DNA from: Cyanidioschyzon merolae
Taxonomy: Eukaryota
Assembly (NCBI GenBank): GCA_000091205.1
Contig: AP006500.2
DNA length: 64,000 nucleotides
Strand: one strand, 5' to 3'
Each line of letters opens with the position of its first letter. Positions within the stretch are counted from its first letter, which is position 1. The translations under genes and the position numbers were made by a program. Under the pieces are notes generated by a model. The model was given only the letters and a program-made list of their open reading frames with translations, searched no databases and had not been told where the DNA came from. Below, piece by piece: positions 2,817 through 63,513 of this stretch.

Positions 2817-4189
2817 GGTAGCCTTTAACTCCGATGGTGCTGCGAAGATGAACTCGCTGGGTGACTTGGATCGTTCCCCAGGCCGGTTATACTGCGTTTT
2901 AACGTGCAGTCGATAGCACGGCTGCTCGGGAGCGAGGAGTCCGCGCTCTCAGTTGCCTGACGTCAGCGTAGGAGTGCTTAACGCTGAGCTTCAAGACCGT
3001 TGTCTGCAGAACCTCGTTTGGTTTCTGGCTTTCTCAGTCTGTGGAGAGAACTTGCACAGAATCGTCGGCCCCAACGCAGTGAACGTTACCTATTGAGTGC
3101 GTCGAGGCACATGGGCAACTCGCGAGTCGAAACGGTGCGCCGCCTCAATGGCGAACGCCAGCCACGCGCAGGTACCAGTCCGGTGCTACTGGGTGCTGTG
3201 TGCACCCTCTCGACAGGCCTCGTGTTTACCGCGAGTGCAGCCGTTGGCATCGCTGGGAATAACGTCAACGACGGCTTCGAAGCTTCTCTCATGCACGATA
3301 GAGTTTCCTAGTGTTTTTTAGTCAACGGAGCAGCGCCAGACAAGTTTCGTAGCAACGGTGCGTAACTGCCTGCTCGCTGAGTCGCATCGGCAGAGGCTGT
3401 GTTGCTGGGTTTTGGGTGTTGGAAAAGTTTGTTCGGATGGCAACTGGATCATCACCTAAATTCTGCGTTCGGTAGCCTCTCTGGTCCGTATGGGAAATGG
3501 CAGGCGGTTATCGTGGAGAGATCTCGGGGGGTGTGAAGGCATCCAAACGTGATATTTTTCTGCTTTCACAGCAATGAGGGAACGAGCGGCATCGTGAAAA
3601 CACTGCAACTGGGGTGTAGATTGCCCCGAGCACCGTCACTGCCGCTACAGGTCATTTCCATGCCCGAACAAGATAAGAGCTGCACTAGCACGAGGTGACG
3701 AGCTCAGCGAGCGTCTTCGCATGAGCATCGGAAACTCCGGAAACCAACGACGACGTTGAGCATGCCCTCATAGGTCCAGCGGCATGCATCGCCGCATCAA
3801 CGCATAACTGCGGAAAACAGGAAGAGAGCGAAAATCCGCAGCCTGCGTGATTTGCGCATGCTCCACGTAAGGAAACAACAAACGCGGCGACGTTTACGTC
3901 GTCCTTCGATCACGATATCGGTTCGTGAAGGAACGATGGTTCGAGCACGTTGCGACTCTTCGGGAATACGCTGACGAAACGAATACCAGCGGCATTGCGT
4001 CGAATGATCCACTCCGAAAAGACGACCGTGATTCCTCCAACTTCATACCCCATCCGCAAGCACGTATAGTTGCACTTGGTATGAGGATTCTGCAGATCTA
4101 TTCAAAGTTTGGAACCAGCCGCAAAGCAAGAACGAAGCGAGCACTACCATAGCCCATAGAGACGGGACACCGCCAGAGATCATAGCACA

Positions 4190-4510: not shown

Positions 4511-4592
4511 CCCTGCGGGACACGTTTCCATCCAGCGCCGCCTCTGAGCGCGTCGCGGCGCTTTCTCAAGCGCTATCCCGGTCGCGTTCGCG

Positions 4593-7138: not shown

Positions 7139-7251
7139 AAACGCTGTTTACACGGCGAGATGCCGGTATGTACGCATACCAGGATAAGAAGAGACGCGTC
7201 TGTCGCGATGACTCGAGCGTGCACCCTAAAATGTTGAGCCTCTTTCCGGTG

Positions 7252-8609
7252 TCATGAGCATCGGCCGGTGCGGGCTTCTCTACGACTGCTTGGTTTTCCG
7301 CTCTCACGGATCCCTGGATCGAAAAACGCCGGTCTCTCTTTTGTTGTCAGACTCGATGTCGACTGCCCAATGATGCTGATGGCAGTGTTCAGGAAGTCGC
7401 CACAACGTCGCACACAGCTGCTGGCACGGCATGACATGGACTGACAGAAGTTTCCATCTACGCTTTGCTCGCTGAGTTCATCTTCTTTGGGTGCGGCCTC
7501 GGAGCGCATGTCGCATTCGTGACGCATTGCTGTGTGGTGAGGTGCTCCCGTCTATCCACGGGATATCGTTAGCACGCGCGCCCTCTGAGCACTGCCTTGG
7601 GGCCCGTAAACGCTCGCTTCATCGTTCGGTACCCGCAATCGACGGGCGGCCAGACGCCTCCGGTCGATGCTCACTTCCGTTTCCGCGTCACGGGGCGGGA
7701 TTCTATGATCTCGGGCCTTTTCTAGGGAACCTCGCGGACTAGTACGCTGTCTGCTGCACGCGCAAGTGCAAGCAGTCCAATTCGGTAGAGGATCTGTGGC
7801 GCACAATGTTTTCCATGATGAAAAAGATATCAAACGGAAACCAAGGCGAGAGAAGCATCCAAGAGTGATTCCGATACGTCTACAGTGCCTTTGTGCAAAG
7901 CGACGACGCAATCTGCACTCGAAATGATCGCTGCAATGACTCAAGTCCGAGTTCAAGGCCGTTTTCCATGCAAGCACAAGGGATGTATGCTGCTGGGCGC
8001 AAATCCCGTGCCAGATACCGTGATGCTGCTTTCAAATGCCGTTTCGCCAATGGCCAGAAAGACAGCAGGATTTTGCCTGTCGAACGATATCGATTCTTTG
8101 ACGTGGCAAGTTCAGTGAACGTGTAGCATCAGTGTGTAGGGCGACTCGTCAATCACGAGGCGCGAACTGCTGCTTCCACCAGTTGCCTTGAAACCAAAAG
8201 ATCGAAAACCAGAATCACATGTGATTTGATCATGGTCCATGTAAGGCAACGAGATGCTTCCTGGACGGAATGTCTGCACTGCACCAGGGTACCGCGGGGC
8301 TACGAACGCTCGTTCGTGCGGGCGCGTCTCGTCGTCTGATGTCGATCGCAATGAAGCTGTGATTTTCAGCTGCGGTTCGTCGAGTGATCCAACACGGAAA
8401 GACTGATCGAAAAATACCTTTAGAACGACGGACGCAATCGTAAGCCCCCGTTTTTCGCCGCACTTTGCCTGCCAAAGCTGTATATCTGAACGTGCTCGAC
8501 AAGGAGCACGCGGCAAGCACCGGACAAACGGCGCGCTAGTCGATGATCGTCGCGCACACTGCGGACCTTCGAGGCGGAATCCGTTGATAACGTGTACATA
8601 AATGTTCAT
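7252..8609 (-). pseudogene. Degenerate TnpB/Fanzor-like RuvC nuclease relic, copy a. It is frameshifted across three ORF segments: 8609-8112, 7977-7552 and 7527-7252.
   Basis: The antisense of the dispersed ~300 bp repeat at 7850-8125 encodes a RuvC-I-like ...ALNSDLSHCSDHF (compare GIDLG...LSDG). Downstream is a Cys cluster NFCQSMSCRASSCVRRCG that matches the CQSTACVERC cluster of the IR copies. Overall size is ~1.36 kb, about a 450 aa TnpB. It lies head-to-head 20 bp from the DNMT3-like gene start. Confidence 0.45.
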
Positions 8610-29043: not shown

Positions 29044-29220
29044 GTGCTCGGCACGGACCTGAGAGCCGCAACGTTCCCCGTGCATAAAAGCAAAACACGC
29101 GCCGGCGTGTGGAATGATGCCGATGATCGTGACTTGTTTTTGCCAAGACACGGAAATGATGATACGCTTGGTTGATCACGCGCTGTCAGCTTACGTGAGC
29201 AGCATCTACTCGGGCGTCAG

Positions 29221-30610
29221 ATGAAAATGGAACACTGAAGCTGTGGCTCCATTCGGGTCTTTCAATTTTCCCGAGCTTTTTTACGTGTACAGCCTCGACA
29301 TGCGAAAAGCAGGTGCAAGTGCTGCCGGATTCACGCGTAATTTTTGGATCCGCGGTCGGCTTTTCGCAGAGGAGCCTTTCACGCTGTGCCGCTGGACGCT
29401 TTTACGTCATCTTCATCAGGATGATTCGCGACACCCCCGAGCTCGGATTCGTCAAATAACCGATATCGTAATCGAAGTTATAGAAACGAGCTGCCACTGT
29501 TCTTGAATCCTTTTCTTACGTGTACCAGAATCGAATCACGCATTCTACGAGTGTTGGATCCTTGTGTTCCCGGGCAACTCGAGGCGTATCCATTGGCACC
29601 GCACACTTGACGACGCAAAAAATTGTCGACGTCGAGCTTTGACGACTTGTTTACAAGCGCATGCCGAAAACCTCGTGGAGCTGCCGACGTCGCATAATCG
29701 TCTCCGGTCTAAAGATGAAGCTTCATTTCCTGCAGGTCATCGACGAAGCCGGTCGCGAATGCACCATCACCATGCCTTCGACGGGATATGCGCGCAGGAG
29801 TTCCCGTCTCTCCTAGCTCTATAAGAAATGGTCTTGGATATGGACATGAGTCATTACAGCGATCTGTCTCTATGGAGCGCGCATCTCCGCTTTGCACGAA
29901 GCGAGCATATTCGGTTCGATACTTTTCGACGTACTCTGGAGCCTCGATTCCCTCTCCGATACCTGTTTCATCACAGGCAACAACAAGGTCCTAAAATCCT
30001 CTATTCGTTAGAATAGCATGCACTTGCAAGTGCAGCGGACAACGTACTCGCCGAGCGTATCGCCCAGATACAGCTCCTGGTCTTCGAGTGCAGCACTGGG
30101 CCAGGAACCGAAGCACAGGATCGTTGGAAGCTTTTTCGTTTCCTGCCAGTCAACGGCATGTGTCGAGCGATGCAGCGAGCGTTCACGCGTCACAGGGCGG
30201 CGCTCAGCGGACGAAGTCTTGTGATGGACGTATGGGAGCACCTGATGACACTCAAGTGTAAACGTCGCGGATCGAGAGCTACCGATGTATACAAGAAAGA
30301 TGCAAATCGTTACCGAATCGTAGATCACAGCTTCCATCTGTGCACCAAATGCGTCGGTAAGAGCTGCAAAACGACGTAACCGAGACTCGGGGGCAGCCAT
30401 AAACATCCTTCGACTGCTGGCAACGGACCTGAAGAGACAAGAAAGGCCGGCGTATGTAAAATCCGGAGACAAACAAGAACGAGGATCGGGAAGCAGCATG
30501 AGAGAGAGCCCGCAAAGGCTTGTGCCAATAACAGTGGGAACAGTTCCAGAATTCATTCGTATACGCCCGAGTTCCCTCCATGAGCCTCCTTTATTTCATT
30601 CTGATACGAG
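29221..30610 (+). mobile_element. IR-A. A 1.39 kb element carrying a frameshifted TnpB/Fanzor-like relic in plus orientation, here called copy b. It is ~98% identical to the inverted copy at 52368-53756.
   Basis: Both copies have identical ORF-track peptides: 29243..29506 equals 53470..53733, and 29564..29824 equals 53152..53412. The ORF 30008..30556(-) is near-identical to 52420..52968(+), differing at a few residues. The internal relic has a RuvC-I-like IRNGLGYGHESLQRSVSMERASP. After the RuvC-II region it has VMDVWEHLMTLKCKRRGS (compare ILDAGW...YKA..G). Its zinc finger SFHLCTKCVGKS aligns with copy e's NFHLCMKYVHNS. Where copy e has RDENAAINI, this copy has decayed to RLGGSHKHP. Identity stops at 29221/53756 and 30610/52368. 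Confidence 0.55.
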
Positions 30611-30949
30611 TGCAATGACGCTACCCCGGACGGTATTGGGACAGTTGGGACGTAGGGCAGGGCGCTTCGTTGCCACCCGCCGAACGCTGCCTCAGTGAAG
30701 AACGCGAGTGTGTCCGTTGTTGCATGTCTGGGGCCTGGGGCACGCTTGCGATGCGCACAAACTGCAATGCTCTAGCCGCCGGGCACTTGGGTCCACCACC
30801 GGCACGACCCCGGTCATCCTGGAGGTGCACCAACTAGGCAGCCCAGTGGCGTGCAGGAACAGAACGCGCTTCGCAAAGATCGACGCGGGACCACGTGTGC
30901 GAAGCTTACAGAGATGCCGCTAGGTTTCATCTAAAAGATCACGTAAAGC

Positions 30950-33789: not shown

Positions 33790-33810
33790 ATCACCACCAC
33801 CACCACCACC

Positions 33811-33843
<33 letters not shown>

Positions 33844-33845
33844 GT
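33790..33845. repeat. Poly-His-encoding (CAC)n(CAT)n microsatellite. A longer allele lies in the duplicate at 46070-46130.
   Basis: caccaccaccaccaccaccaccaccaccaccaccatcatcatcatcatcat seen directly. DR2 has a longer run. Confidence 0.9.
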
Positions 33846-33934
33846 TCACCAATGGCCCAGGAAAATCATGCCCGGCATACGCATAGGCGGGATGGTAGCA
33901 TTGCTGAATCGCCGACTCGTGCCATACCGGTGCC

Positions 33935-35140
33935 TTGCTCCAGGCGAGCGTTCAACGCACGCTCTCTTGCTCAATCATACTTTTTCGTCGCAAGTCTTCG
34001 GCATTTAAACACAGTGCCCACACGGAGCACGAATCGATTCGCTTTAAACTTCGCTCGATACACATAGCCGATAGACGCCCCCCAGGCACGAGACTTTTCC
34101 GGGTGTTGATCGAGACGTTCATGGCTCGGAGCGGAGCCTGCGCCCGCACACATGACTTGCGATGGAATCACACCAAAGTGAGCCTGCCAGCTTCAATTGC
34201 CTCGCAATTTGACGTCCGAGGTCCGCTCGCAGTATCCCATGTCGGACATTCCAAAGTGAGCCTGCCAGCTTCATTTGCCTCGCAATATGACGTCCGAGGT
34301 CCGCTCGCAGTATCCCATGACGGACATTCCAAAGTGAGCCTGCCAGCTTCATTTGCCTCGCAATATGACGTCCGAGGTCCGCTCGCAGTATCCCATGTCG
34401 GACATTCCAAAGTGAGCCTGCCAGCTTCTATTGCCTCGCAATACGACGTCCGAGGTCCGCTCGCAGTATCCCATGACGGACATTCCAAAGTGAGCCTGCC
34501 AGCTTCATTTGCCTCGCAATATGACGTCCGAGGTCCGCTCGCAGTATCCCATGACGGACATTCCAAAGTGAGCCTGCCAGCTTCATTTGCCTCGCAATAT
34601 GACGTCCGAGGTCCGCTCGCAGTATCCCATGTCGGACATTCCAAAGTGAGCCTGCCAGCTTCTATTGCCTCGCAATACGACGTCCGAGGTCCGCTCGCAG
34701 TATCCCATGACGGACATTCCAAAGTGAGCCTGCCAGCTTCATTTGCCTCGCAATATGACGTCCGAGGTCCGCTCGCAGTATCCCATGACGGACATTCCAA
34801 AGTGAGCCTGCCAGCTTCATTTGCCTCGCAATATGACGTCCGAGGTCCGCTCGCAGTATCCCATGACGGACATTCCAAAGTGAGCCTGCCAGCTTCTATT
34901 GCCTCGCAATATGACGTCCGAGGTCCGCTCGCAGTATCCCATGTCGGACATTCCAAAGTGAGCCCGCCAGCTTCAATTGCTACGCAATACGACGTCCGAG
35001 GTCCGCTCGCAGTATCCCATGTCGGACATTCCAAAGTGAGCCCGCCAGCTTCTATTGCCTCGCAATACGACGTCCGAGGTCCGCTCGCAATATCCCATGT
35101 CGGACATTCGGCCCTGTTTCCCAAGTGGCGCTCAACGTAG
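33935..35140 (+). CDS. ORF spanning the 78-bp (26-aa) minisatellite. Repeat protein HSKVSLPASFASQYDVRGPLAVSHDG x12. Its coding status is uncertain.
   Basis: The ORF is open in several frames on both strands. The minus strand gives LTLECPTWDTASGPRTSYCEAIEAGG repeats, because the unit length is a multiple of three. Unit variants gac/gtc and ttcatt/ttctat/ttcaat interleave. A second copy sits at 46224..47039 with 7 units. Confidence 0.25.
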   Translation: MLQASVQRTLSCSIILFRRKSSAFKHSAHTEHESIRFKLRSIHIADRRPPGTRLFRVLIETFMARSGACARTHDLRWNHTKVSLPASIASQFDVRGPLAVSHVGHSKVSLPASFASQYDVRGPLAVSHDGHSKVSLPASFASQYDVRGPLAVSHVGHSKVSLPASIASQYDVRGPLAVSHDGHSKVSLPASFASQYDVRGPLAVSHDGHSKVSLPASFASQYDVRGPLAVSHVGHSKVSLPASIASQYDVRGPLAVSHDGHSKVSLPASFASQYDVRGPLAVSHDGHSKVSLPASFASQYDVRGPLAVSHDGHSKVSLPASIASQYDVRGPLAVSHVGHSKVSPPASIATQYDVRGPLAVSHVGHSKVSPPASIASQYDVRGPLAISHVGHSALFPKWRST

Positions 35141-37623
35141 ACGCAGCACGAGCATCCGCACTCGAGCTCCGTCTGCGTCGCCATCTAGTCCTCCACAGGA
35201 AACGTGCAACATCGATTCCTGCACTCGCTGTACGCACAGGAGTCCAGCGTTTGCGTGCCACAGCACATCCAGCGCCACAGGCTTCCAGCAATCGACGCGA
35301 CCTGTTGGGTACTCCCTTTTCCAACTGGTCCAGGAGCTTTGCGAGTGCGCGCCCCTCGCCTCCGTCCAACCGAGTCCGTTGGTGGCCCCCCAGCGCCGTC
35401 TCACGGAATCCTGCCAAAGGCTGTGCGCATGCGCAGGTCAGACGCTCGTGCGCGCTCTGAGTTAAAAGTGGAAACCCATCCCACGCTGCTCGACACACTG
35501 CTCAGCGCGTTCACTTTCAGGTCCTGACGCAGTCATTCCGCCTCGTACTTCGCCGTATGCCATCCAAGGTGATGCGCGGCTCCCGATCATACCAAGTGCT
35601 GGACGCGCTGGGCAGCTCCGTCTGCTTGCCATTCAGGTCTTGGGCGGCGCCGTCCGCCTCATTTGCATACACGGGGACGACAAGGGCGCTCTTCAACCTC
35701 GGATCCACGCTCCCAACAGCGACTTTCTCCTCGTCTGCCTTGAACAGTTGAAAATGAGCCTCGTTGGTGACCCAGGTCACGCTTTCACGACGCCCATGCG
35801 TACTGGAGATCCGTCGGTATCCAAAGCCTCGCTACGCGCTGCACGCCATGCCTTCCATGGAGACTAGAAACATCTGAAGAAGCGCCGCCGACGCTTTTCG
35901 TGGACCTGTTCGAGTCCGTCATACTTGCGCGGAGACACCGGATCCTTCTTCGAATACTCCGGTACCTGGCGGAGCAGCACGGACAGCGACGCTTCACTCC
36001 GTATCCGTCTCTTCTTCGGGATCCAGATGCACTGGGTGGACGACGAGCGCCAAGCTCTCCCATACTCTGCTTGTATGCACGCTATCCTCTGTGATGCTTT
36101 TCGTGACCTCATGGGTCACGAGCACGCCCACGGAGTGCAGCGTGCGTTTCCGTTCGCTCCCGCGCACGACCAGGGCGCAGCAGCACAGCAGCTCTCGACC
36201 CCTGCATAGAAGAGAGTAAAGTCGTGGATTCGTCACAGAACGTTGTCTCGGAGGCGAACGACGCATCGACGGATCCGTGAGTGTCCACATGACCTTGGCG
36301 AGCAGACAAGTCGCCCTCGACTGGATGGAGTCGACGAGACCCAGCCCACACTAGGAGCCGTCCACGGCCGTGCGCAGCAGCGTGCGCCTTGGTCGCTTTT
36401 CAGTGGTGATTCGCGACGTCGTAGATTAACAGGACGGTAGAGTACCTGAAGAAGAAGAAGAAGGAGACACAGCAGAAGCCAAGGAGAGTTTCGTCGACTC
36501 GTGAGGCAACAAACGAGCAGGGCTTTCTCGCGAGCTGCAGACCATCACACCAAAACCCTCTCTGCTGCTAACGCCAACACCGTTCTCACTACGGCTGGTC
36601 TCCTGTTTATGACCAGAAGCTTGCCGCAATTTGAGCTCCCATATACACGCCAAGCATCGCTTCCAAATAAAGCCCCATCGACTTCGATGGACACCAGTCC
36701 GCCCTGTGATGAGCATTCGCATTGCCGTTCGGAATCGAACGCGTGGTACTCCACTCGCGACAGTCTCCCAGACAGGCGTGCTTGCTTTTCGTCATCCATC
36801 CGCGTCTTTTCGTCCCAGTTCGTATCGACAGCACAGAAACATCACGCCGTTTGGATTTCTCTCGGTAGGACGTCTCAGGGCACGCAAGCTTAGAAAGCGA
36901 CTGACGAGGCGACACTCGGGTAGAAAGTGCCGGAAAATTTCCGTTTTCGCTCGACAACGTTCATGATATCGGTGAGGATTCGGTTGGTTCACCCATGTGC
37001 TGACCGTGGAATGACTGACTTGTACATGTATGAGCTTTTCTTGCGAGCTCGTCCTGGCAGCATCAAGTCTCTCTGCGCCCGTTCTCCAATATCCAGCATA
37101 CACTCCGTCGGATGAAGACCTGCGACATCGATAAACGAAAACACCAGCGTGCTTGCTGGTACAAGGCACCCATGAATTCATGAATCTAAGTCTCTGAGTA
37201 TAACAATGCACAGGCGTACATATAAACATGAACGTGCCAAAGATCCGCGATGAGCGTCTAATCGGGAGGTTGCGTACGAGACGCACACCGCCCCGCCGAC
37301 GGCTGCTGCACCAGCAAGCTGGGTAGAAGGTCTTGACATGATTCAGGCGTGTTGCTGGTGCATCTGGCATTCGCCTCGAGGCCAAGTCTCCGTCGTAAAC
37401 GCGCGTAGATTTACAACCAACCCTGTCAACTCAAACGTGCGTGACCTGTATCGGAATCGTGTCCAACCTGGTATCATGCGTTTCTGCCCGCTCGCTCAAC
37501 GAGTCTCAGCAGCGCTTGAGAAGCCAGGTTGCATCGCGCAGCCATATGACCTGCAATCAAGTAACACGCTACGTTTCCCGAATGGTCATCATCAGGGCAA
37601 TGGATGCAGTGCCTGTCTCGTAT

Positions 37624-39237: not shown

Positions 39238-41541
39238 CAGTTAGAGTCAAGCGATGAAATGAAGCGACGTTTTCCCACACAAACCGCGCACCTCTGCAAA
39301 CGTGTCCGCACAGTGCACTGTGCACGTCGAGCGTACAATCCCGCTTTTACGACACAAAGCGTCGATGTAAGGTATTGCCCTGCAGAGGGCGCCCCGCGTT
39401 CGTGATTGGATGGCGCGCAGCACGACACGCGACGGTGCATGTGTTCGAATTCGCTATCGCGAAGCCCGCCGGTGCACAACGTGGCGGTAGACAGCGCATC
39501 GACGGCATCGCCGCGTTCCATGCGCGCATTCAATTGCGCACGCGGGTTGCTGGCGATGCGCGCTATGGATGGCGATTGACGGCAGGTCGCACAGCTGCAC
39601 GTGTCGCCGCCTGGCGCGGCGGCGCTGCAGGGATCGTGCAGCGCACCGGCGGCTGCTCCAATCGGGGGCGGAACGTTGGTCGTCGCCTGTATGTCCGTTT
39701 TGTTGCCTTTCATCCACATTGCGTTCCAGTGTCCAGGTGCATGTCACCAAGTGCTCTTCCACAGCTCAGAGCAGGTGCGTTTTAAGTGCGTTGATTGGAG
39801 GTAATAAAAGATGCAAGGAAAAGTTATGGATGTGCAAGTCAGGGACACTTGAGGGCCGCCATTGTCGGGTGCTGGTAGAAACGATAAAATCCTCTTCTCG
39901 CCGAACATCGAGCGAAAAGGATCAAGTCATGGAGAAGTAGAAGAGCGCAGATTGACGAGAAAAGGTGTTTCGCCGACGGGACGCTGAGGAGACTCTAGTG
40001 GCACAGAGGGCACGAGTCTGAGGAATTCTAGCAATAGTGGGTTAAAGTAGAGGCACGAAATGCATGGAGTTCGTGAACCGGGACCTGGCGCCGCCATTAT
40101 TGTCAGAAGATGTGTGGTGCTGAAGACGAGGCCCGCGGAGCTGACGCGATCCAACTTTGTGCGGTGTCCTGCAGGCCTCGGAGTTTGCAGGAAGAAAATG
40201 AAAACGATAGCATAGCGGTGGTCAAAATGGCAGGGAGACTTCTCTGAGTAGGTATATACATACTCTCCATGGCCGAAGAACGTTTCTCCTTTGTTTGGTC
40301 TCATACAGGTCTCGTGGAGCAGCGTGCTGGAGGCCGATCGCTTGTATCCGCAGGCACGCCAAATAGGGGCATCTTCCGCGCCTGCTATGGATCAGAATGA
40401 TGTTGCCGATAGATGCTATGCCAGACACTGAGGCGAGTGAGCATCTAGTTCCCAGAGGTTTTCATAAAGAATGCGTGATGCGCCTGAAAAACGACGAGCA
40501 CGCACTTCGAGCGGCGATTCTATCGTTTGCGAATGCTCCCGAACCGTTCCACTGAATTCTTCCGATCGCGACAAGGTGTGCAATGGACTCGTCAAGCATC
40601 CCTCGCATCTAATGGTATTTCTCGATAACAGGGTAGACACGAAAATTCCTTCGTGGATGGCATCGATCGCTGATGCACCTGGTCGAATCGATGCCTTCCC
40701 CCCGGACACGGATGCACCATTGCTGAACCTGTCTTTTTTCATCACAGTTCGATGTACGATGTCGAGATGTGCGCAGCGCTACCTTGCCCACTAATATGCT
40801 AAAATCTATATTGCGCATCCCACATCGCTGATCGATCCAGTGATGTATAGAAAGCTCGCTAAATGAAAGGTGCTCGAGACGTTGTCGCGCATGCACTGTA
40901 TGCCGCACCGTGCACCATTCTATAGCGGCATCAGTGCTTCATTACCTTCCGGGTGAAGGATCCAGCGAATCGGATGCACTTACGAGCGCAGCGTGTCTTT
41001 CGCACCTGCGCACTGGTGAGTGCCAAGCAAACGCCCGCGCCGCGAACCGACACCGCATCCCATGCACGACCGCGAAGAGGAGCGACACTGCTCTCAGCAT
41101 TCATCCTAACAGCCGAGTTCCTCTAACGTGTCTTGCAGCGAAGGCAAGTCAGCATCCGCAGGCTGACTGATCACAAGTAGACATCGAGACCTGAACCTGT
41201 GTCGGGTGAAGCACGCCTCGAGCCTACGCCCTCTGTGGTACGACAACACCGGTGCTATATGCGCAATCGCGGACGCAAGATAGAACGTATGAATCGACCA
41301 GTGTATCCGAGAGGAAGTATGGGTAATGGAACTTGGAAGTAGGTCATGGAGCAATATATGCTTCACCGCGCAACGCGATAATCGGCGTACAGTGGGCGAA
41401 CGCTGGCCTGTGTAAGCGTTTCGCAAATGAACAGAAATCAGTGCTTCGTGATCGGCAGCGGCGGCGCTGGCAACGCCATACAGCGTAACCTCGAACGGCA
41501 GCGGTGCGCACTGCAGCGCGGCACGCTCCTACCGGATATCT

Positions 41542-44352: not shown

Positions 44353-45968
44353 CAAGCACATAAAAGCAGCTTGCAGCGCTGTCGTGCGGACGCTGGACAT
44401 GGCGCAGCAGCGTCACTTGGGAGTTCTGGACGTGCTTCGGAGACAGTTGACCGCGGCAGTGCCGGTTTCCAAGAACAGAGGGCGAAACCCCGGGACTTGG
44501 GTCGTTTCCGACGCCTTGCTGTTGTTCTTGTTCTTGTTGTTGTTGTTGCTGCTGCTAGATCCATGTCGGAATAGAATAGAACCGGTCCGCTTTGTTCACA
44601 CGGGCATACACGCTGGAATTTGAGCATGTTCTCATGTTCATGAATATGAGGTTTTACGAGCCTCTTATGCGACTGCGTCGCTCTCGCCTCTCGTGTCCTT
44701 GTCTTTGAATACGCGTATCTGTCCTTGACCTCCAGCTCTGTTGCCGGCAGTCGAAAGATCATGACAGCAGCGGTAAAGACTGGGTGACGTCGTTTCCAGC
44801 CGTCGTCGACGCATGTCATGCAAAGGCGCAAGTTGCGATCTACGCTTCGCTCGCTACCGTTAAATTCTTCGCTTTCAGCCTCTGTATGCCCGTCGTAGCA
44901 GTGAAACTCTGCTATGGGTCAGGTGTTCTCATATGAATGCCACGCGTCGTCGGTCTCCTTCAAGGGTCGCCCCCTTGCACGTGAACGCCTGCTTCAGCGC
45001 TCGGCACATGCGCGTGACGCGTGCGCGTGTATGTCCTCGATGCCTCTCTCCGTTTTCGAGCTCGTTGCAGCACCCTGTGATCACTGGCTTCCTCTAGTCG
45101 AATTAAGCAGCGAGTGTTCTGTTTGCTGGGTGGGGAAGCGTATGCCGCTCAATTCTACCAGGGATTTGTGAACAGCGTCGCGTTCCGCAAAGAAACAAAT
45201 ACCAGAAGAAAAATTCTTGCTCGAGAACATGTCGAAAAATCTTGATCTGTTTGCGATTGCTGCGTGCAAAAACGGCGACGCTCTCTCTTTTGAAACCGAT
45301 TGCTCGGATGACTTGAGTCCGAGTCCAAGGGCCTTTACCATGCAAGCAGAAGGGACCGGAGCCGCTGGGAGCAAAGCCGTGACCGGCATCATGCTAATAT
45401 GGAATGCGGTTTCTTTGGTGGCGGGAGGGAGTGGCGGCTTTGCTTTTCGAACGGAATCGATTCTTTGACGTGACAAGTTCCGTAAACTTTCGACATGAGC
45501 TTGAGAAAAAGTCGTCTAGAGACGACGTCGAGTATCTTCTTCGCTTTCTTTCCCGCGGCGCAACTTGCTGGGCCAATGAATTGCCTCGACGTCGAGAAAT
45601 CGAAAACTTGAAAACGCATGCTTTGAGCATACTAAACGGAATGAAAAGGGAATAGGATAGGCTTGTAAGGATGACCGGATGATGATATTGGTTACTTTAC
45701 GAACCATGGTTCCATTGCGTCGCGAATCACCTCGATAACGATGACATGATGAATTCTGGATGCCAAGATTCCGAAGCTTTACTCGGAAGCACAACCAAGA
45801 ATCCAGAAACGATATATGAATCCAAACGGCGTTATTTCTCCAGATTGAACCACATGGCTGCACAAAACTGCGAAAAAAATAGATATACGGGAACAATGCG
45901 TGTACTTTCGTGTTCCATTCATTTCTGATACGGGTGTAGAGGTATGCAGCCTCGGAGACGCTCGACAC
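44353..45968 (-). pseudogene. Degenerate TnpB/Fanzor-like relic, copy c. It abuts the Pumilio stop codon and ends ~60 bp before DR2.
   Basis: The antisense of the dispersed repeat at 45200-45520 gives a RuvC-I-like VKALGLGLKSSEQSVSKERASPF, which is protein-level similar to the IR copies' NGLGYGHESLQRSVSMERASP. ORF 44349..44831(-) begins MRLCMTCVDDGWKRR, a DAGW-like post-RuvC-II motif. ORF 45516..45968(-) is the possible N-terminal part. It is heavily decayed. Confidence 0.4.
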
Positions 45969-46029: not shown

Positions 46030-46084
46030 TGCATGTCAATGTACGGTCAGGTATGTCGAATCATGGATCACCACCACCACCACC

Positions 46085-46132
<48 letters not shown>

Positions 46133-49093
46133 GTTCACCAATGGCCCAGGAAAATCATGCCCGGCATACGCATAGGCGGGATGGTAGCATTGCTGAATCG
46201 CCGACTCGTGCCATACCGGTGCCTTGCTCCAGGCGAGCGTTCAACGCACGCTCTCTTGCTCAATCATACTTTTTCGTCGCAAGTCTTCGGCATTTAAACA
46301 CAGTGCCCACACGGAGCACGAATCGATTCGCTTTAAACTTCGCTCGATACATATAGCCGATAGACGCCCCCCAGGCACGAGACTTTTCCGGGTGTTGATC
46401 GAGACGTTCATGGCTCGGAGCGGAGCCTGCGCCCGCACACATGAATTGCGATGGAATCACACCAAAGTGAGCCTGCCAGCTTCATTTGCCTCGCAATATG
46501 ACGTCCGAGGTCCGCTCGCAGTATCCCATGACGGACATTCCAAAGTGAGCCTGCCAGCTTCATTTGCCTCGCAATATGACGTCCGAGGTCCGCTCGCAGT
46601 ATCCCATGACGGACATTCCAAAGTGAGCCTGCCAGCTTCATTTGCCTCGCAATATGACGTCCGAGGTCCGCTCGCAGTATCCCATGACGGACATTCCAAA
46701 GTGAGCCTGCCAGCTTCATTTGCCTCGCAATATGACGTCCGAGGTCCGCTCGCAGTATCCCATGACGGACATTCCAAAGTGAGCCTGCCAGCTTCATTTG
46801 CCTCGCAATATGACGTCCGAGGTCCGCTCGCAGTATCCCATGTCGGACATTCCAAAGTGAGCCTGCCAGCTTCAATTGCTACGCAATACGACGTCCGAGG
46901 TCCGCTCGCAGTATCCCATGTCGGACATTCCAAAGTAAGCCTGCCAGCTTCTATTGCCTCGCAATTTGACGTCCGAGGTCCGCTCGCAGTATCCCATGTC
47001 GGACATTCGGCCCTGTTTCCCAAGTGGCGCTCAACGTAGACGCAGCACGAGCATCCGCACTCGAGCTCCGTCTGCGTCGCCATCTAGTCCTCCACAGGAA
47101 ACGTGCAACATCGATTCCTGCACTCGCTGTACGCACAGGAGTCCAGCGTTTGCGTGCCACAGCACATCCAGCGCCACAGGCTTCCAGCAATCGACGCGAC
47201 CTGTTGGGTACTCCCTTTTCCAACTGGTCCAGGAGCTTTGCGAGTGCGCGCCCCTCGCCTCCGTCCAACCGAGTCCGTTGGTGGCCCCCCAGCGCCGTCT
47301 CACGGAATCCTGCCAAAGGCTGTGCGCATGCGCAGGTCAGACGCTCGTGCGCGCTCTGAGTTAAAGGTGGAAACCCATCCCACGCTGCTCGACACACTGC
47401 TCAGCACGTTCACTTTCAGGTCCTGACGAAGTCATTACGACTCGTACTTCGCCGTATGCCATCCAGGGTGATGCGCGGCTCCCGATCATACCAAGTGCTG
47501 GACGCGCTGGGCAGCTCCGTCTGCTTGCCATTCAGGTCTTGGGCGGCGCCGTCCGCCTCATTTGCATACACGGGGACGACAAGGGCGCTCTTCAACCTCG
47601 GATCCACGCTCCCAACAGCGACTTTCTCCTCGTCTGCCTTGAACAGTTGAAAATGAGCCTCGTTGGTGACCCAGGTCACGCTTTCACGACGCCCATGCGT
47701 ACTGGAGATCCGTCGGTATCCAAAGCCTCGCTACGCGCTGCACGCCATGCCTTCCATGGAGACTAGAAACATCTGAAGAAGCGCCGCCGACGCTTTTCGT
47801 GGACCTGTTCGAGTCCGTCATACTTGCGCGGAGACACCGGATCCTTCTTCGAATACTCCGGTACCTGGCGGAGCAGCACGGACAGCGACGCTTCACTCCG
47901 TATCCGTCTCTTCTTCGGGATCCAGATGCACTGGGTGGACGACGAGCGCCAAGCTCTCCCATACTGTACTTGTATGCACGCTATCCTCTGTGATGCTTTT
48001 CGTGACCTCATGGGTCACGAGCACGCCCACAGAGTGCAGCGTGCGTTTCCGTTCGCTCCCGCGCACGACCAGGGCGCAGCAGCACAGCAGCTCTCGACCC
48101 CTGTGCATAGAAGAGAGTAAAGTCGTGGATTCGTCACACAACGTTGTCTCGGAGGCGAACGACGCATCGACGGATCCGTGAGCGTCCACATGACCTTGGC
48201 GAGCAGACAAGTCGCCCTCGACTGGATGGAGTCGACGAGACCCAGCCCACACTAGGAGCCGTCCACGGCCGTGCGCAGCAGCGTGCGCCTTGGTCGCTTT
48301 TCAGTGGTGATTCGCGACGTCGTAGATTAACAGGACGGTAGAGTACCTGAAGAAGAAGAAGAAGAAGGAGACACAGCAGAAGCCAAGGAGAGTTTCATCG
48401 ACTCGTGAGGCAACAAACGAGCCGGGCTTTCTCGCGAGCTGCAGACCATCGCACCAAAACCCTCTCTGCTGCTAACGCCAACACCGTTCTCACTACGGAT
48501 GGTCTCCTGTTTATGACCAGAAGCTTGCCGCAATTTGAGCTCCCATATATACGCCAAGCATCGCTTCCAAAGAAAGCCCCATCGACTTCGATGAACACCA
48601 GTCCGCCCTGTGATGAGCATTCGCATTGCCGTTCGGAATCGAACGCGTGGTACTCCACTCGCGACAGTCTCCCAGACAGGCGTGCTTGCTTTTCGTCATC
48701 CATCCGCGTCTTTTCGTCCCAGTTCGTATCGACAGCACAGAAACATCACGCCGTTTGGATTTCTCTCGGTAGGACGTCTCAGGGCACGCAAGCTTAGAAA
48801 GCGACTGACGAGGCGACACTCGGGTAGAAAGTGCCGGAAAATTTCCGTTTTCGCTCGACAACGTTCATGATATCGGTGAGGATTCGGTTGGTTCACCCAT
48901 GTGCTGACCGTGGAATGACTGACTTGTACATGTATGAGCTTTTCTTGCGAGCTCGTCCTGGCAGCATCAAGTCTCTCTGCGCCCGTTCTCCAATATCCAG
49001 CGTACACTCCGTCGGATGAAGACCTGCGACATCGATAAACGAAAACACCAGCGTGCTTGCTGGTACAAGGCACCCATGAATTCATGAATCTAA
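46030..49093. repeat. DR2, copy 2 of the ~3.4 kb direct duplication. It has a poly-His (CAC/CAT)n run at 46070-46130 and 7 units of the 78-bp minisatellite at 46460-47010.
   Basis: See DR1. The peptides are near-identical: 46224..47039(+), 46951..47397(-), 47416..47679(-), 48405..48797(+) and others. Confidence 0.9.
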
Positions 49094-49944
49094 GTCTCCG
49101 TAACGACACCAGCTGTGCACAGACATGCAACGACGGGTGCGCAGGGGGAAACCCCGCCTCGCGTAGTGGGCACTGGAAGCTCGCAAGCAGCGCGAGCCCC
49201 ACGTTGCTGTGCTTGTATCGCTTGCGTTGCTCGCAGGTTGTCGTTTATCTTACCAAAGTACGCTGTTTGCACAGCGTGACGCTGATCGCTTATGAGGCAG
49301 CGAGTGCAACATACCACGCACAGGAGAGCAGCGCGTAATGACTCGAAACGACATGATCTCGCGCGTGCGTTGCAAGGGCGTTAAAAACCCGTCGGTCAGC
49401 GCTTTCGAAACAAGGTCTTGGTACTGGCATGCCAGGGTCACTGGTCCTGTGCGCAGCAACCAAGGCATAGCAGTTGCAACTCTACGGGAATGCATCTTTC
49501 GTCTTGAATACCCGAGGATGCTCGCAGCTGGAGAACGTCAGGCATCAGCGCATCGTGTTTCGAGCATGTTTTCCTGGTGCAGAATAGATGCATCGGACGA
49601 AAGGCTTTGTGGAAGCTTATCGTTCTTCGCGTGTCCAGGAAGGACACCTCAACTTCTTGGCAAATACTTTGACGCGTCACACACCTTAAGGCGCCTAGCA
49701 ATACGCCACGCTCCATCGCCTGTGCAATGGCATTCGTGCAGTGACAACGCGCTGAACTGAGAGCGGCGCACCTCCAGGGGCCTGACCTCTCGACGGTTGC
49801 GTCCGAAAAGCGTCCGCTATCAACGTGTGCTGCGATGTCAATGCAGATATCGAGAAGGCTCTGGGCATATCCAAAAAGGAGACGCGCATTTGCTGGTGCT
49901 TTTCATTGTACCTAGTCGATGGAGTCAGAGTGCCCAGTCGCGCT

Positions 49945-51834: not shown

Positions 51835-52367
51835 AGTCAGAACACGTCCACGGCGCCGCCGGTGTCAATCGCGAGAGCGTAGTTGATTCAAGACGCTTTT
51901 CAGGAGAAAAAAAGCTCACCAAAGTGCTCACGGAGCGTCTGCCGTCACACGCTCGGGTACTCACCAACGAGCGCACGTGTTCTGGTTTGGGAGGTTTCAG
52001 GTGCCCGAGGCAGCAAACACAGGCTCCCTTTGTCCCGTCTCGATGCGCCAGCAACAGTGACGTAGACCAGCGGTCGTCCCTGTTGGACCGATCTTCGTTT
52101 CAAACGATTCGTTTGGAGCACCGTCTCCTCCAAAAGCGCTTCGTATGCGCTTGCCAGCTGCAACGGTAGCGGCAGCGTCGGCCTCGTGTACGCAGGGCAC
52201 GGGACGGCCTTGGTCAAGCAGCTGGGCATGAAATTTGTCTAAACTGGATATACCTGGACTTGGCGGACGCGAGTAGAGGGTTGCGCTTTGGAGGTGGTGC
52301 TCAGTGCGATTCCGTTGGAAGCACGTACCAGTCTCGACGAGCTGGCGTATGGGAGCGTCTCTAGACT

Positions 52368-53756
52368 GGTATAAGAATGAAATAAAGGAGGCTCATGCAG
52401 GGAACTCGGGCGTATACGAATGAATTCTGGAACTGTTCCCACTGTTATTGGCACAAGCCTTTGCGGGCTCTCTCTCATGCTGCTTCCCGATCCTCGTTCT
52501 TGTTTGTCTCCGGATTTTACATACGCCGGCCTTTCTTGTCTCTTCAGGTCCGTTGCCAGCAGTCGAAGGATGTTTATGGCTGCCCCCGAGTCTCGGTTAC
52601 GTCGTTTTGCAGCTCTTACCGACGCATTTGGTGCACAGATGGAAGCTGTGATCTACGATTCGGTAACGATTTGCATCTTTCTTGTATACATCGGTAGCTC
52701 TCGATCCGCGACGTTTACACTTGAGTGTCATCAGGTGCTCCCATACGTCCATCACAAGACTTCGTCCGCTGAGCGCCGCCCTGTGACGCGTGAACGCTCG
52801 CTGCATCGCTCGATACATGCCGTTGACTGGCAAGAAACGAAAAAGCTTCCAACGATCCTGTGCTTCGGTTCCTGGCCCAGTGCTGCACTCGAAGACCAGG
52901 AGCTGTATCTGGGCGATACGCGCGGCGAGTACGCTGTCCGCTGCACTTGCAAGTGCATGCTATTCTAACGAATAGAGGATTTTAGGACCTTGTTGTTGCC
53001 TGTGATGAAACAGGTATCGGAGAGGGAATCGAGGCTCCGGAGTACGTCGAAAAGTATCGAACCGAATATGCTCGCTTCGTGCAAAGCGGAGATGCGCGCT
53101 CCATAGAGACAGATCGCTGTAATGACTCATGTCCATATCCAAGACCATTTCTTATAGAGCTAGGAGAGACGGGAACTCCTGCGCGCATATCCCGTCGAAG
53201 GCATGGTGATGGTGCATTCGCGACCGGCTTCGTCGATGACCTGCAGGAAATGAAGCTTCATCTTTAGACCGGAGACGATTATGCGACGTCGGCAGCTCCA
53301 CGAGGTTTTCGGCATGCGCTTGTAAACAAGTCGTCAAAGCTCGACGTCGACAATTTTTTGCGTCGTCAAGTGTGCGGTGCCAATGGATACGCCTCGAGTT
53401 GCCCGTGAACACAAGGATCCAACACTCGTAGAATGCGTGATTCGATTCTGGTACACGTAAGAAAAGGATTCAAGAACAGTGGCAGCTCGTTTCTATAACT
53501 TCGATGACGATATCGGTTATTTGACGAATCCGAGCTCGGGGATGTCGCGAATCATCCTGATGAAGATGACGTAAAAGCGTCCAGCGGCACAGCGTGAAAG
53601 GCTCCTCTGCGAAAAGCCGACCGCGGATCCAAAAATTACGCGTGAATCCGGCAGCACTTGCACCTGCTTTTCGCATGTCGAGGCTGTACACGTAAAAAAG
53701 CTCGGGAAAATTGAAAGACCCGAATGGAGCCACAGCTTCAGTGTTCCATTTTCATC
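52368..53756 (-). mobile_element. IR-B, the inverted near-identical copy of IR-A, carrying TnpB/Fanzor-like relic copy d in minus orientation.
   Basis: It is the reverse complement of 29221-30610 with a few substitutions. The internal dispersed-repeat segment at 53040-53270 is homologous to 7850-8125, 45200-45520 and 61741-62070. Its left edge is ~530 bp from the YqaJ gene start. Confidence 0.55.
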
Positions 53757-54818
53757 TGGTACGTTTCTGGGGCAGCGGAGACCCTGTTCCTCATTGGTGA
53801 CAGAGCTTGCCCATTTTATGAGTGCTGACTCAATGCACTGTTGCAGTACCATAAAACATAACCAACGCAACAGCTTTTCCACATGATTTTACTTGTTTTT
53901 GCATCAAGCCTCGACAAAGGCACGGCCGTAGACGGCAAATGTGTCTTCATCCGTTACGTGCATCAGTACGGCCTGCCATGAACCATAATCCGGATCGAGT
54001 TCAGCGACTCGACGCGAAAGCTACAAGATGGTGGACAGGTCTTGCACACCGCCGCAACGTGCAACTAGCGGAGGCGATAGTAGCGAAGACGCTCACCAGC
54101 GCTTCACCGGACAGCGGTCCAGTGCGACGTTGATGATAGTCTGAGATTCACCGCCATGTTAAGGGGCACACGTACACCCGCGCAGTTTCGTTTGGCGTTC
54201 TGCTCCAAACAGCGTCACGAAGCCCGGGAGGACGCAACGCGAGACCCAGCTACGACTGCGCTTGCCGGCGCTAGTGCCGGCGTTGCGGTGCACGAATCAT
54301 GCATTGCTCATCAACAAACTGGTCGCTGTCACGCTCCATGACGCTTTGAGGGCACCATGAAATCTTCAACAAAAGTTTTGAACAGGAGTCTGCGCTGCCG
54401 CACGTGCACCGAGCGCACGTTCGCAGTCACAGAACGTGCAACGGAACCGTTGACGGTGCTATGGCTCGCTTCGGTCATGCTTTCTATGCCGCCGAGACTC
54501 CCACGTCGATACCGATGCCGGACAACGACTGTGACCAGGGAGGATACTTTGCGAGACGCGAACTATCTTTACTGAGGACTGCATACAGCCTGAGTCATCA
54601 CGACTCATCGCCGGTAACGTCTACAGGCACGACTGGAACTGCAGCGCCCAGCCTAGAACCGCGCATCTCTGTCCGTCATGCTGTCGAGGGATGTCCCGAA
54701 TCCATCCTCTGGCATTCATCAAATTCCAGGTGCAGTCCATTGCCTAGTGGACCTGATGCATGAGCGGCTCATCGTCTAATGACGTTGGAGATGAACAGCT
54801 CGCATCGGCAATCGGTGC

Positions 54819-55736: not shown

Positions 55737-55974
55737 TCCTGCGCCTACCTTGAAGAGAATTCTAATACGAGACCCTCTTTAGGTGCTAGCGCACGTCTAC
55801 CACTACTATACGCGGAGCAAATCCAAACCAACACAGAAGAAGTTTGTCACAACAAACGGAAATGGCGCAATGCACGACGCAGACGCGTATGACTGGCAGG
55901 CGCTGCATCGCGAAAACGTCGCGATGCGTCGCGGCGCAGGCGGAGGCATCATCTGTGCTGGAGCATAATGCGTG

Positions 55975-56195
55975 GTAAGTTTTATACAGGATTTGACAGG
56001 TACAATGAAGCGGACGTGCGTGATGCGTGACAAGTTTTATACAGGATTCGACAGGTACAATGAAGCGGACGTGCGTGATGCGTGACAAGTTTTATACAGG
56101 ATTTGACAGGTACAATGAAGCGGACGTGCGTGGTAAGTTTTATACAGGATTTGACAGGTACAATGAACCGGACGTGCGTGATGCTCATGACGCAG
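55975..56195. repeat. Tandem array of a ~55-bp unit, about 4 copies, starting ~240 bp upstream of the carbonyl-reductase gene start.
   Basis: The unit aagttttatacaggatttgacaggtacaatgaagcggacgtgcgtgatgcgtgac occurs four times. The last two are slightly shortened or variant. Confidence 0.85.
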
Positions 56196-61055: not shown

Positions 61056-61740
61056 GCGCTGTTCGTGTTTTTACCACACCAAACGAGCGCACAGTCCCGT
61101 TCGTCAAGCGCCCGCCGGGGCTCCGCCAGTAGCCACTCTGTTTGGTGGTCGCGGTAACGAAGCGTCCGTGCTGTGTCCTTGACAAGACCTCCGTTCGGTA
61201 TCGCCAATAACAGAACGTTCTAAACCCTGGTGCTGGTATGTATGTGTGTTGGTGTGTGTGTGTGTGTGTTTGGAGCGTCTGCGCAACGCCAGAGCAGAAC
61301 GCGCTGGAAGCGCTGCCTGCGCGAAACGCGATGCCCACAATACCACACGTATCCGACGCAAGCGGAAACCCAAACTACTCGAGCTATGCCTGCATTTCGA
61401 TTTCCTTTCGAATGTTTTTTAGAAGAACTGTCTGGACGTTTCATGTGAAGCGATGAAGGCTTACGGATTCAGAAGTAGTTTTAGAACTGTCGATCTTCTT
61501 TTCAGAGTGACCCTTTCGAATCTTTGCTGTTGGAACCCTTGGTGTCACCGGAATCAAGATGATTCGCGAAGCACTCGACCACAGAGTTGGGAAATAATCG
61601 GGATCATCATCTAGTTCATAGGTAAAGGCCTCTGGTCTTCTCCTTTCCTTACGTATAGCATGCCGAACCCGCGCATGGTACTCGTGTTCGATCTCTCCGT
61701 TTCAAGGCAGGTCGTAGGTGCAGCGATTCGAGCCGCTGGA

Positions 61741-62721
61741 TTGACGAGGAAAATACTGGACGTCGTCGAATGAAGACTTGTACACAAGCTCATGGCGCAA
61801 GTTCACTGAACTTGTCATGAAAATGATGGATTTCATGTGAGAGACAAATTCTGCTTTCTTTGCGGTCCTCGATATGTCGGCATTCGACAACAGAAAGAGA
61901 GCTCGCACAGGATGTATGCGGCCAGAGGCACCTGTCTCTTCTGTTTGCATGGAAAGGGGTTCTTGGGTTCGGACTTTGATGATCGCAGCTTTCGCTTCGA
62001 TTTGCGTATGCATCAGCGCTTTGCATGGAGCGAGCGTAACCGGACCGACACTTCTCGACGTGGTCCCTGGTCTGCACTTTCCATCCGGTAATTGGCTCAT
62101 CATTTGACAACATCGCGCTCCATAATAATCCTCTGTCGAATGAGACAACTTGCACTTTCATGTGTGGCGGACGCAGCACTCGTCAGCGGGATCGTTCATT
62201 GTAAGCTCGTGATCGTGGCGTACCGCACAGGGCGCGGAAACGAAGATGCGTATCAAGCGGAGCCTTCTGAACCCGTCAAGCGCATCCATTGAGCAATAAA
62301 GCACCGCAGGAGGATGTCCGGAGAAGGATTCGTGGCGGACATGCCGCCATACTTGACCACGGCCAAGTGTCATCGCTGCAAAGTGTACACCTATTCTGTA
62401 TAAAAAAATGAAAATGTCACGTTAAGAGTGTATTACAACTTCCACCTGTGTATGAAATACGTCCACAATAGCCGTCCGTTGCGAAATCGAGACGAGAACG
62501 CTGCGATCAACATCCTCCCACGACTGACATCGCAGCCCGAAGGTCAGAAGGGACCGGTGGATGTTTCGAGCCAGAGATGCGAGATAGGAGAAGGAAACAG
62601 TCGCAGAATCCTTCTCCGACTGTCCCCTATTGATGGTAGCTGGGAGAGACCCAAACCTCAGCATGTTCGCCCGAGGTCGCTGACAAGAGGATCTCTCCAT
62701 GCGATTCCAACAACGGTGTAG
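61741..62721 (+). pseudogene. TnpB/Fanzor-like RuvC nuclease relic, copy e. It is the best preserved of the family, with RuvC-I to RuvC-III in one frame broken by in-frame stops.
   Basis: Reading frame 1 mod 3 gives ...GFLGSDFDDRSF (RuvC-I-like), then ...SIIILCRMRQLALSCVADAAL (RuvC-II and DAGW-like region). Next comes GFVADMPPYLTTAKCHRCKVYTYSV*KNENVTLRVYYNFHLCMKYVHNSRPLRNRDENAAINILPRL. This matches the TnpB consensus V.V.P.YTS.C..CG...F.C..CG..DRD.NAA.NIL. Stops fall at 62089, 62290 and 62401. The 62401 stop is TAA where the IR copies have TAC (Tyr). Confidence 0.6.
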
Positions 62722-63513
62722 GCCTGCAACGAAGCGCGCGTCTCGCTGCCGACGTGAAGATACGGACCTTCATCGAGAACAAGCTGCAGCGTCCATCGCA
62801 CCGCATTACACAGCGGACGAGCAACGACATCAGTTCAGAGCTGATGGGGCCCTGAATTCCAGATGGGCGCATCTACGACCATGAGCTGGATACGTCCACG
62901 GAGGTCGTCCCTGAAAACACGCCTAGCATCTGGAACTTCTCTTTGTCGATCTTTCGGATCAAACAAGAAGAGCGCATGGTTTGCTCTCACCTCCATTGTT
63001 TTGATATCCCCCAGCAGCATTTCTCATGCCGATTGCATCCTACGGTGCTGCAGCTCCCCCGACTCCGAGCCGATGACCTGGAGTACGTTTCACACCGGCA
63101 ACCTCCGAGCTTCTGTTGGGATCACGTGACAAAGGCTATGCGGGGAATCCTCTCGCCTTCGTACTCCTATTTCATCTCACTTGAACGAATACCAATGATC
63201 CAGAGGGTTGCAGGTACCCGTATACAGGGTTCTGGCCAGCGCCAACGCAGCGGCATTGGATGCAGCGAGGCGGCACCGGTCGGTACACCTCCGGGAGCGT
63301 TCATACTCGTCGAGCTGGCTGGCTGGCTGGCTGGCTCGCTGCCTCATTGTTTTGTTCGTTGTTTGAACTCTTGGTTTCGTATTTGATAAGCTGGACGTGA
63401 TCTTCAGGACTGGACGAGGCGTTACCGCACTAGCCGCAAGCACGGAGCGGACTGCTGCTCGCGTCTCTCGCAGCGAGGTTGCACGTTCGGGCGCTTGAGC
63501 CGGCCTTTACGCT

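Follow-up and report, generated by a model that had tools for sequence, protein, structure and literature searches.

The 64,000-nt stretch of Cyanidioschyzon merolae DNA analysed here (the window) very probably holds six copies, all dead, of a single non-autonomous class II IS630/Tc1/mariner transposon with a Fanzor1 tail. Over its 5' 60%, the element corresponds to the beginning of a transposase of IS630/Tc1-mariner type, with HTH and DDE_3, as far as a point just past the second catalytic Asp. The remaining 3' 40% lies in a different reading frame and corresponds to ~180 codons from the end of a Fanzor1 gene, comprising a VIIGYGTG strand, a zinc ribbon of the CxxC...CxxC type and an RNRDxNAAINIL motif. 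An earlier note, made from the letters of the window, had taken each copy for the remains of one ~450-aa gene of TnpB/Fanzor2 size. It is not one such gene because its 300-bp core is DDE_3 transposase; only ~180 codons are Fanzor-derived, and these point to the Fanzor1 lineage.

The window is part of chromosome 18 of C. merolae 10D, four of its ORFs being exact matches to CMR026-029. It is gene-dense (G+C 56%) with long ORFs without introns, which include RFC1, pumilio, inositol-phosphate synthase, a PPR protein and a C5 DNA methyltransferase; a tRNA scan and an Rfam scan of the window were both empty. Several other repeats were observed. A direct segmental duplication (33763-37194 and 46040-49098; 3.4 kb, 98.6% identity) holds 78-bp tandem arrays (34095-35174; 46306-47073) as well as a (CAC)n(CAT)n run. 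An array of 92-bp tandem repeats at 21054-21825 lies in the sole low-G+C stretch of the window (0.50), and a 55-bp tandem repeat of four units (identity 88-93%) lies at 55963-56184.

A dispersed repeat at five places in the window had been reported in the earlier note, and self-BLAST, a four-way alignment and nhmmer all bear it out. Self-BLAST pairs 7893-8120 with 45264-45487 (71% identity), 7894-8138 with 62025-61781 (66%), 29326-29669 with 61464-61800 (66%) and, as an inverted pair, 29218-30625 with 53758-52351 (98.9% over 1408 nt). The four-way alignment is collinear over ~1.35 kb with a mean column identity of 64%. Searching with an nhmmer profile revealed six copies in the window (Table 1): five full ones of about 1.38-1.40 kb (a to e, all E=0) and a truncated sixth, copy f, that had been missed (E=5e-43 with one profile search, E=1e-99 with another). 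The repeat family is thus confirmed as real and lies far above chance. From terminal repeat to terminal repeat the full copies measure 1375-1404 bp, which agrees with the 1.35-1.4 kb given for the relics before; the 300-bp cores from which they had been recognised correspond to positions ~430-870 of the 1.45-kb consensus. Pairwise identity among the copies is 64-71%, and 99% between b and d. A 79-bp tandem array (4116-4589) adjoins the 5' end of copy f (3691-4176).

Hand-joined reading frames are open to bias, and more copies were therefore sought. JGI metagenome contigs were scanned, which yielded 19 loci in hot-spring samples. These amount to ~6 more independent copies of the ~1.4-kb element with unrelated flanks; their layout is the same as that of the window copies, and all are decayed. 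One metagenomic copy (L009:1959-3909) carries an internal ~96-bp tandem expansion in which profile positions 263-353 occur ~8 times. Window and hot-spring metagenome copies were combined into a majority consensus of 1449 nt, behind which stand only ~10 copies. While the consensus of four copies had found no match in the protein database, the 10-copy consensus did find relatives.

Table 1. Copies of the chimeric element in the window and anatomy of copy e (strand as in the window)
Feature	Position	Strand	Remarks
Copy e, whole element	61344..62718	+	1375 bp; nhmmer E=0, span 61318-62738; termini from 10-copy alignment
Copy e, 5' terminal inverted repeat	61344..61369	+	family consensus CACCCGTGTCAGATGAAAATGGAACA
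Copy e, transposase-derived part	61423..62131	+	begins at start codon position; includes 61741-62070 core
Copy e, HTH	61699-61746	+	VSRQVVGAAIRAAGLT
Copy e, first DDE Asp motif	61862-61885	+	motif mapping
Copy e, second Asp motif	62096-62131	+	decayed; motif mapping
Copy e, chimera junction	62132..62134	+	DNIAFHKS to YRMEQHALARAAD
Copy e, Fanzor1-derived C-terminal part	62134..62660	+	TNB, L020 tblastn, motif mapping
Copy e, VIVAYRTGRG strand	62209-62250	+	
Copy e, first CxxC	62350-62382	+	
Copy e, second CxxC	62440-62460	+	
Copy e, RuvC-III motif	62482-62517	+	RNRDENAAINIL
Copy e, 3' terminal inverted repeat	62693..62718	+	
Copy e, 3' flank	62719-62720		TA
Copy a	7171..8562	-	1392 bp; most decayed full copy; nhmmer (span 7154-8589) and motif/termini mapping
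Copy b	29209..30612	+	1404 bp; TA at 5' end; nhmmer span 29190-30632
Copy b, first DDE Asp motif	29733-29756	+	motif mapping
Copy b, second DDE Asp motif	29967-29999	+	motif mapping
Copy b, Fanzor part	from 30002	+	
Copy b, zinc ribbon	30239-30352	+	
Copy b, RuvC-III motif	30375-30410	+	RNRDSGAAINIL
Copy c	44558..45936	-	1379 bp; Fanzor motifs decayed; nhmmer span 44546-45963
Copy c, termini			best-preserved terminal repeats, 17/26 ungapped matches; TA at both ends
Copy d	52364..53767	-	1404 bp; 98.9% identical to b over 52351-53758; nhmmer span 52355-53771
Copy f	3691..4176	-	truncated; 5' third alone left (family HMM 30-509)

The transposase origin of the 5' part was recognised with the Pfam profile DDE_3. 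On the 4-copy consensus this profile matches with E=9.5e-4, in a frame differing from that of the zinc ribbon match described below and at the very site of the RuvC-I motif that the earlier note had placed in the 300-bp core. After frame correction by hand the match reaches E=2.7e-7 (31 bits), and on the 10-copy consensus, in a single frame and with no hand-joining, E=2.3e-10 (40.9 bits; cut-off 28.6). The IS630 family transposase profile of NCBIfam matches as well (E=1.9e-6), and HTH_Tnp_Tc3_2 does so weakly on the 10-copy consensus (E=0.007). Furthermore, a metagenomic protein of 261 aa (P0067) represents the N-terminal part of an HTH+DDE_3 transposase, with the motifs IVAIDETGF, GYAPRGSRL, TIAAISSSG, ILMDNIAFHKS and PPYSPWFNPI. 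Over 268 aa, collinear from its Met1, it shares 38% identity with the consensus, and it directly matches copies e, a, b and d (E=1.6e-7 to 1.8e-5; in copy e at 61453-61752, tblastn E=1.6e-7). Hence, the supposed RuvC-I motif is the catalytic core of a DDE_3 transposase read out of frame. In IS630/Tc1/mariner transposases, the third D/E of the catalytic triad follows ~34-35 residues past the second D. The triad is incomplete in the element, as homology to transposases does not extend beyond DNIAFHKS. Searching PDB sequences with the consensus, the transposase part and a Fanzor alignment profile returned nothing relevant.

For the 3' part, membership of the TnpB superfamily had been proposed in the earlier note and is upheld by the Pfam profile PF07282 Cas12f1-like_TNB (TNB, formerly OrfB_Zn_ribbon; cut-off 26.3 bits) and by the match of a metagenomic relative to copy e. 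When copies e and b were translated in six frames without correction, Pfam gave a single weak TNB match. TNB scores 18.8 bits on copy e alone (E=0.0018, below the cut-off), 24.2 bits on the 4-copy consensus and 28.3 bits on the 10-copy consensus (E=2e-6), above the cut-off. The DDE_3 and TNB scores thus both climb as copies are added, as true ancestry predicts. OrfB_IS605 or the N-terminal part of RuvC has no Pfam match in any frame of copies e and b or of the 4-copy and 10-copy consensus. CxxC...CxxC...RNRDxNAAINIL is present in e (62350-62517), in b (30239-30410) and, by symmetry with b, in d; the TnpB-type C-terminus attributed to every copy consequently holds for these three and is decayed in a and c.

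The closest relatives of the 3' part were found among Fanzor1 proteins. The consensus carries VIIGYGTGRGNGGG, a Gly-rich Fanzor1-type strand before the zinc ribbon, and is 32% identical to Chlamydomonas Fanzor1 CRe-4 over 108 aa (E=2e-7); CRe-1 matches with E=5e-5. From P0064 and contig L020, a near-intact metagenomic Fanzor1-like protein could be assembled with a single frameshift, in the RuvC core. This L020 protein has a true RuvC-I (KGLDPGRVN; GLDPGRVN at 66-73), followed by YRLGQRALARAADHLVSEGILQKKPVIIGYGTGRGNGGGHKGEPSVPVKAMYRAL, a zinc ribbon and RNRDFNAAINIL. It shares 46% identity with the consensus over 209 aa, only from its residue ~169 on, and directly matches copies e, b, d and c (e at 62125-62382, tblastn E=1.7e-12). 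The same protein matches the published C. merolae Fanzor1 CMe-1 in the RuvC core (E=8e-10, ~26% identity) and Chlorella and Chlamydomonas Fanzor1 (E=2e-5 to 3e-4), and Fanzor2 ACa-1 with E=0.41 only. By sequence comparison, the 3' part is assigned to the Fanzor1 lineage and not to Fanzor2/TnpB, with CRe-4, CRe-1 and CMe-1 as best matches. A RuvC-I motif (GxDxG / DPG) is lacking, as Fanzor homology starts ~100 residues past that of L020 (66-70), and a real Fanzor RuvC-I was never present in the chimeric family. Two motif assignments, YSP...E..W as the third DDE motif and LVIIE as the RuvC-II Glu, were dropped because relatives showed the DNA concerned to be Fanzor1 (ALARAAD...VIIGYG). At the former site the DNA matches Fanzor1 relatives in another frame, and at the latter ten copies give the Fanzor1-typical Gly (VIIGYG). 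Scanning viral contigs with the Fanzor part gave no match.

The two homologies meet within a few nucleotides. In family HMM coordinates, DNA similarity to the transposase locus L024 extends to 809; similarity to the Fanzor locus L020 begins at 816. In the consensus, DNIAFHKS in the transposase frame is followed 2 bases on by YRMEQHALARAAD in the Fanzor frame, the two halves being out of frame. These data show the family founder to be a chimera. From the homology limits at 809 and 816 and the out-of-frame halves it follows that the founder had neither the third residue of the DDE triad nor the aspartate of a Fanzor RuvC-I, and therefore could encode neither enzyme. In the founder, the left part opened with a terminal inverted repeat of ~26 bp and a ~75-nt leader; then came ~236 codons from the start of the transposase, with two HTH motifs and the first and second catalytic Asp. 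The right part contributed the last ~180 Fanzor1 codons, from YR..Q.ALARAAD through VIIGYGTG, the zinc ribbon and RD.NAA.NI, and closed with a tail of ~60 nt before the right terminal repeat. On a metagenomic contig of lower G+C (L025:5992-6507), a Fanzor1 relic begins at residue 163 of the L020 protein, near the junction point; the shared start may reflect a recurrent breakpoint or coincidence.

The ends of the element are those of a mariner-like transposon. The consensus termini are CACCCGTGTCAGATGAAAATGGAACA and, at the other end as reverse complement, CACCCATGTCAGAATAAAATGGAGCG, which match at 22/26 positions (search form of the terminal repeat: CACCCRTGTCAGAWKAAAATGGA). Terminal repeats of single copies are poorly kept (6-17/26 matches). 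TA exactly abuts five of the ten window ends and several metagenome copies and is absent at the other half of the window ends; its chance occurrence is estimated at ~0.05 per end. Paired terminal repeats together with TA are the signature of the IS630/Tc1/mariner superfamily.

All copies contain stops and indels in every frame, as the earlier note had said of stops or frameshifts. Per copy and segment, 0-4 stops (nine in one copy) and 2-10 indel events were counted. The copies are ~70% identical to the 10-copy consensus, from which they differ by 0.25-0.28 at codon positions 1, 2 and 3 alike, and non-synonymous exceed synonymous changes by ~4:1, the ratio to be expected in the absence of constraint. 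Conservation stays flat over the length of the element (0.70-0.77), and the 4-copy alignment gave no signal of codon periodicity. This pattern is the neutral decay of non-coding relics, and the elements have no present function. Of the description "domesticated-or-dead" for this transposon family the second word stands, and domestication is excluded because the substitution pattern is neutral. An omega-RNA scaffold had also been expected downstream of the relics. RNAalifold on eight 3' ends (250 nt) returned -0.7 kcal/mol and no meaningful covariation, and Rfam found no match in the window; neutral decay could have erased such a scaffold.

How the chimera arose is suggested by the arrangement of its parts. 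We propose that the two halves were joined when a larger composite mariner element, carrying a transposase and a Fanzor1 gene, lost an internal segment by deletion. The deletion derivative would then have spread by transposase supplied in trans, inserting at TA. All copies of the founder drifted neutrally thereafter. A composite parent, with intact transposase and full Fanzor1 between these terminal repeats, was not found in the metagenome loci L020, L024 and L025, so that we can only infer the deletion: the transposase contig L024 ends 90 nt past the ORF, and no transposase adjoins the Fanzor loci L020 and L025. The missing parent and the Fanzor-only relics without a neighbouring transposase would suit a defective mariner element that gained a Fanzor1 3' fragment, either by nested insertion and deletion or by template switching in gap repair, and the start of the L025 relic near the same point (L020 residue 163) hints at a recurrent breakpoint. 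This origin of the same chimera appears improbable to us, since the right terminal repeat pairs with the left one and the Fanzor ORF is co-oriented with the transposase, as expected of the remnant of a composite, and composites of mariner and Fanzor1 have been described elsewhere (PMC3627910), though neither argument settles the matter. Copies b and d, both old, probably owe their near-identity to gene conversion at a later time. The 98.9% identity breaks off within the terminal repeats, ~10 nt in at the 5' end and ~20 nt in at the 3' end, and the outermost bases beyond are as divergent as in pairs of old copies; the two copies are inverted and 22 kb apart. Gene conversion is preferred because these outer bases differ, and recent transposition was rejected on the same ground.

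Two further explanations deny that the copies are remnants of a chimeric transposon. According to one, each copy is a decayed complete OMEGA nuclease of ~450 aa and TnpB/Fanzor2 size, with RuvC-I in the core and omega-RNA downstream. Its zinc ribbon and RuvC-III motif at the C-terminus are real, and one frame of the 4-copy consensus is open for ~280 codons with a VLDSDL...LVIIE series resembling RuvC-I and RuvC-II. However, the core matches DDE_3/IS630 in another frame above the Pfam cut-off, OrfB_IS605 and the RuvC N-terminus have no match in any frame, and homology to the Fanzor1 relative begins ~100 residues past its RuvC-I, at residue ~169. Moreover, the supposed RuvC-II Glu becomes Gly (VIIGYG) with ten copies, the best matches are Fanzor1 and not Fanzor2, and a conserved RNA fold was not found. 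A complete nuclease is thus highly improbable and already largely refuted. The other explanation sees in the copies pieces of a family of host genes, or else a domesticated fusion protein still under selection. Indels are few relative to substitutions, and contigs from the metagenome of related strains are 99% identical to the window, copy a included. This identity, however, spans all flanking DNA, and those contigs therefore belong to the same species. Stops and frameshifts in the relevant frames of every copy, equal substitution over codon positions, the ~4:1 ratio of non-synonymous to synonymous changes and the out-of-frame halves likewise speak against selection, leaving a host protein with a negligible probability. 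The dead mariner derivative with a Fanzor1 tail remains our reading of the family.

Fanzor proteins were named by Bao and Jurka (2013), who listed C. merolae with one Fanzor1 family, CMe-1A (3169 bp, ~150 copies, a 734-aa Fanzor1 and no terminal repeats; PMC3627910). According to the same work, Fanzor1 often resides in mariner elements that show TA duplications, composite mariner-Fanzor1 elements are known from oomycetes and algal viruses, and chimeric Fanzor elements are also frequent (PMC3627910). PUl-1, PUl-2 and PUl-4 of Pythium ultimum and PGv-1 of Phaeocystis globosa virus resemble the family described here in uniting mariner transposase and Fanzor1 in one element, with mariner-type terminal repeats of 24-33 bp and TA duplication, and chimeric, degenerate derivatives have been reported (PMC3627910). 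They measure 3.3-3.8 kb and have complete genes (PMC3627910), whereas the C. merolae element has 1.4 kb, joins ~236 N-terminal transposase codons out of frame to ~180 C-terminal Fanzor1 codons, resides in a red alga and has no known intact parent. Internal-deletion derivatives of IS630/Tc1/mariner transposons are alike in kept terminal repeats, lost coding capacity, TA sites, transposase supplied in trans and remnants of DDE_3 and a Tc3-like HTH. Unlike in these, the 3' coding remnant stems from a passenger nuclease gene (Fanzor1) and not from the transposase. With the TnpB of IS200/IS605 and IS607 and with eukaryotic and viral Fanzor2, the family shares the C-terminal zinc ribbon and RuvC-III (PF07282). 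In contrast to the insertion sequences it has neither TnpA (Y1 or serine recombinase) nor hairpin ends, showing mariner-type repeats with TA instead, and in contrast to TnpB/Fanzor2 a Gly-rich Fanzor1-type strand replaces the RuvC-II Glu and omega RNA was not detected.

CMe-1A is found in the same genome, belongs to the Fanzor1 superfamily and is similarly decayed (~80% identity to consensus), but has neither terminal repeats nor transposase. Relics of it lie in the window at 26617-26870 (-) and 39989-40209 (+) (tblastn E ~1e-11), and an inverted pair (26599-27171 and 39705-40268, 73.5% identical) holds the CMe-1 C-terminus. In a comparison confined to the protein, CMe-1 matches the family copies with E ~5 and the consensus with E=0.008, through the RD.NAAINI motif only. 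On these scores, the chimeric family appears to be a Fanzor1 lineage separate from CMe-1A. Nozaki et al. (2007) described eight transposase-related elements weakly similar to bacterial transposases (PMC1955436), which may include the chimeric family. No description of the family was found in the searchable literature (Repbase lay outside the search). Both Fanzor1 in C. merolae and Fanzor1 on mariner elements had been described by 2013; what is new is the dead chimeric family itself.

The finding opens no new mechanism or class. It corrects an attractive wrong reading, replacing relics of whole OMEGA nucleases with a chimeric, never-functional mariner deletion derivative. A genome famed for almost no transposons also gains a second Fanzor1 lineage, and one associated with mariner. 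The six copies and the CMe-1A relics together make up well over 10% of the 64-kb window. Published figures for C. merolae are a transposon content of 0.7% and ~5% for 3.2-kb repeats; compared with the genome-wide value, elements are far denser in this part of chromosome 18. As a speculative possibility to which we give a low probability, the family might be the fossil of a composite mariner-Fanzor1 lineage specific to the Cyanidiales, red algae of acidic hot springs, with an intact, possibly active thermotolerant Fanzor1 and its transposase surviving in one of these algae, or its Fanzor 3' end might have been kept as a former source of guide-RNA scaffold acting in trans. Metagenomic Cyanidiales contigs are the place to seek an intact Fanzor1 from a thermo-acidophile.
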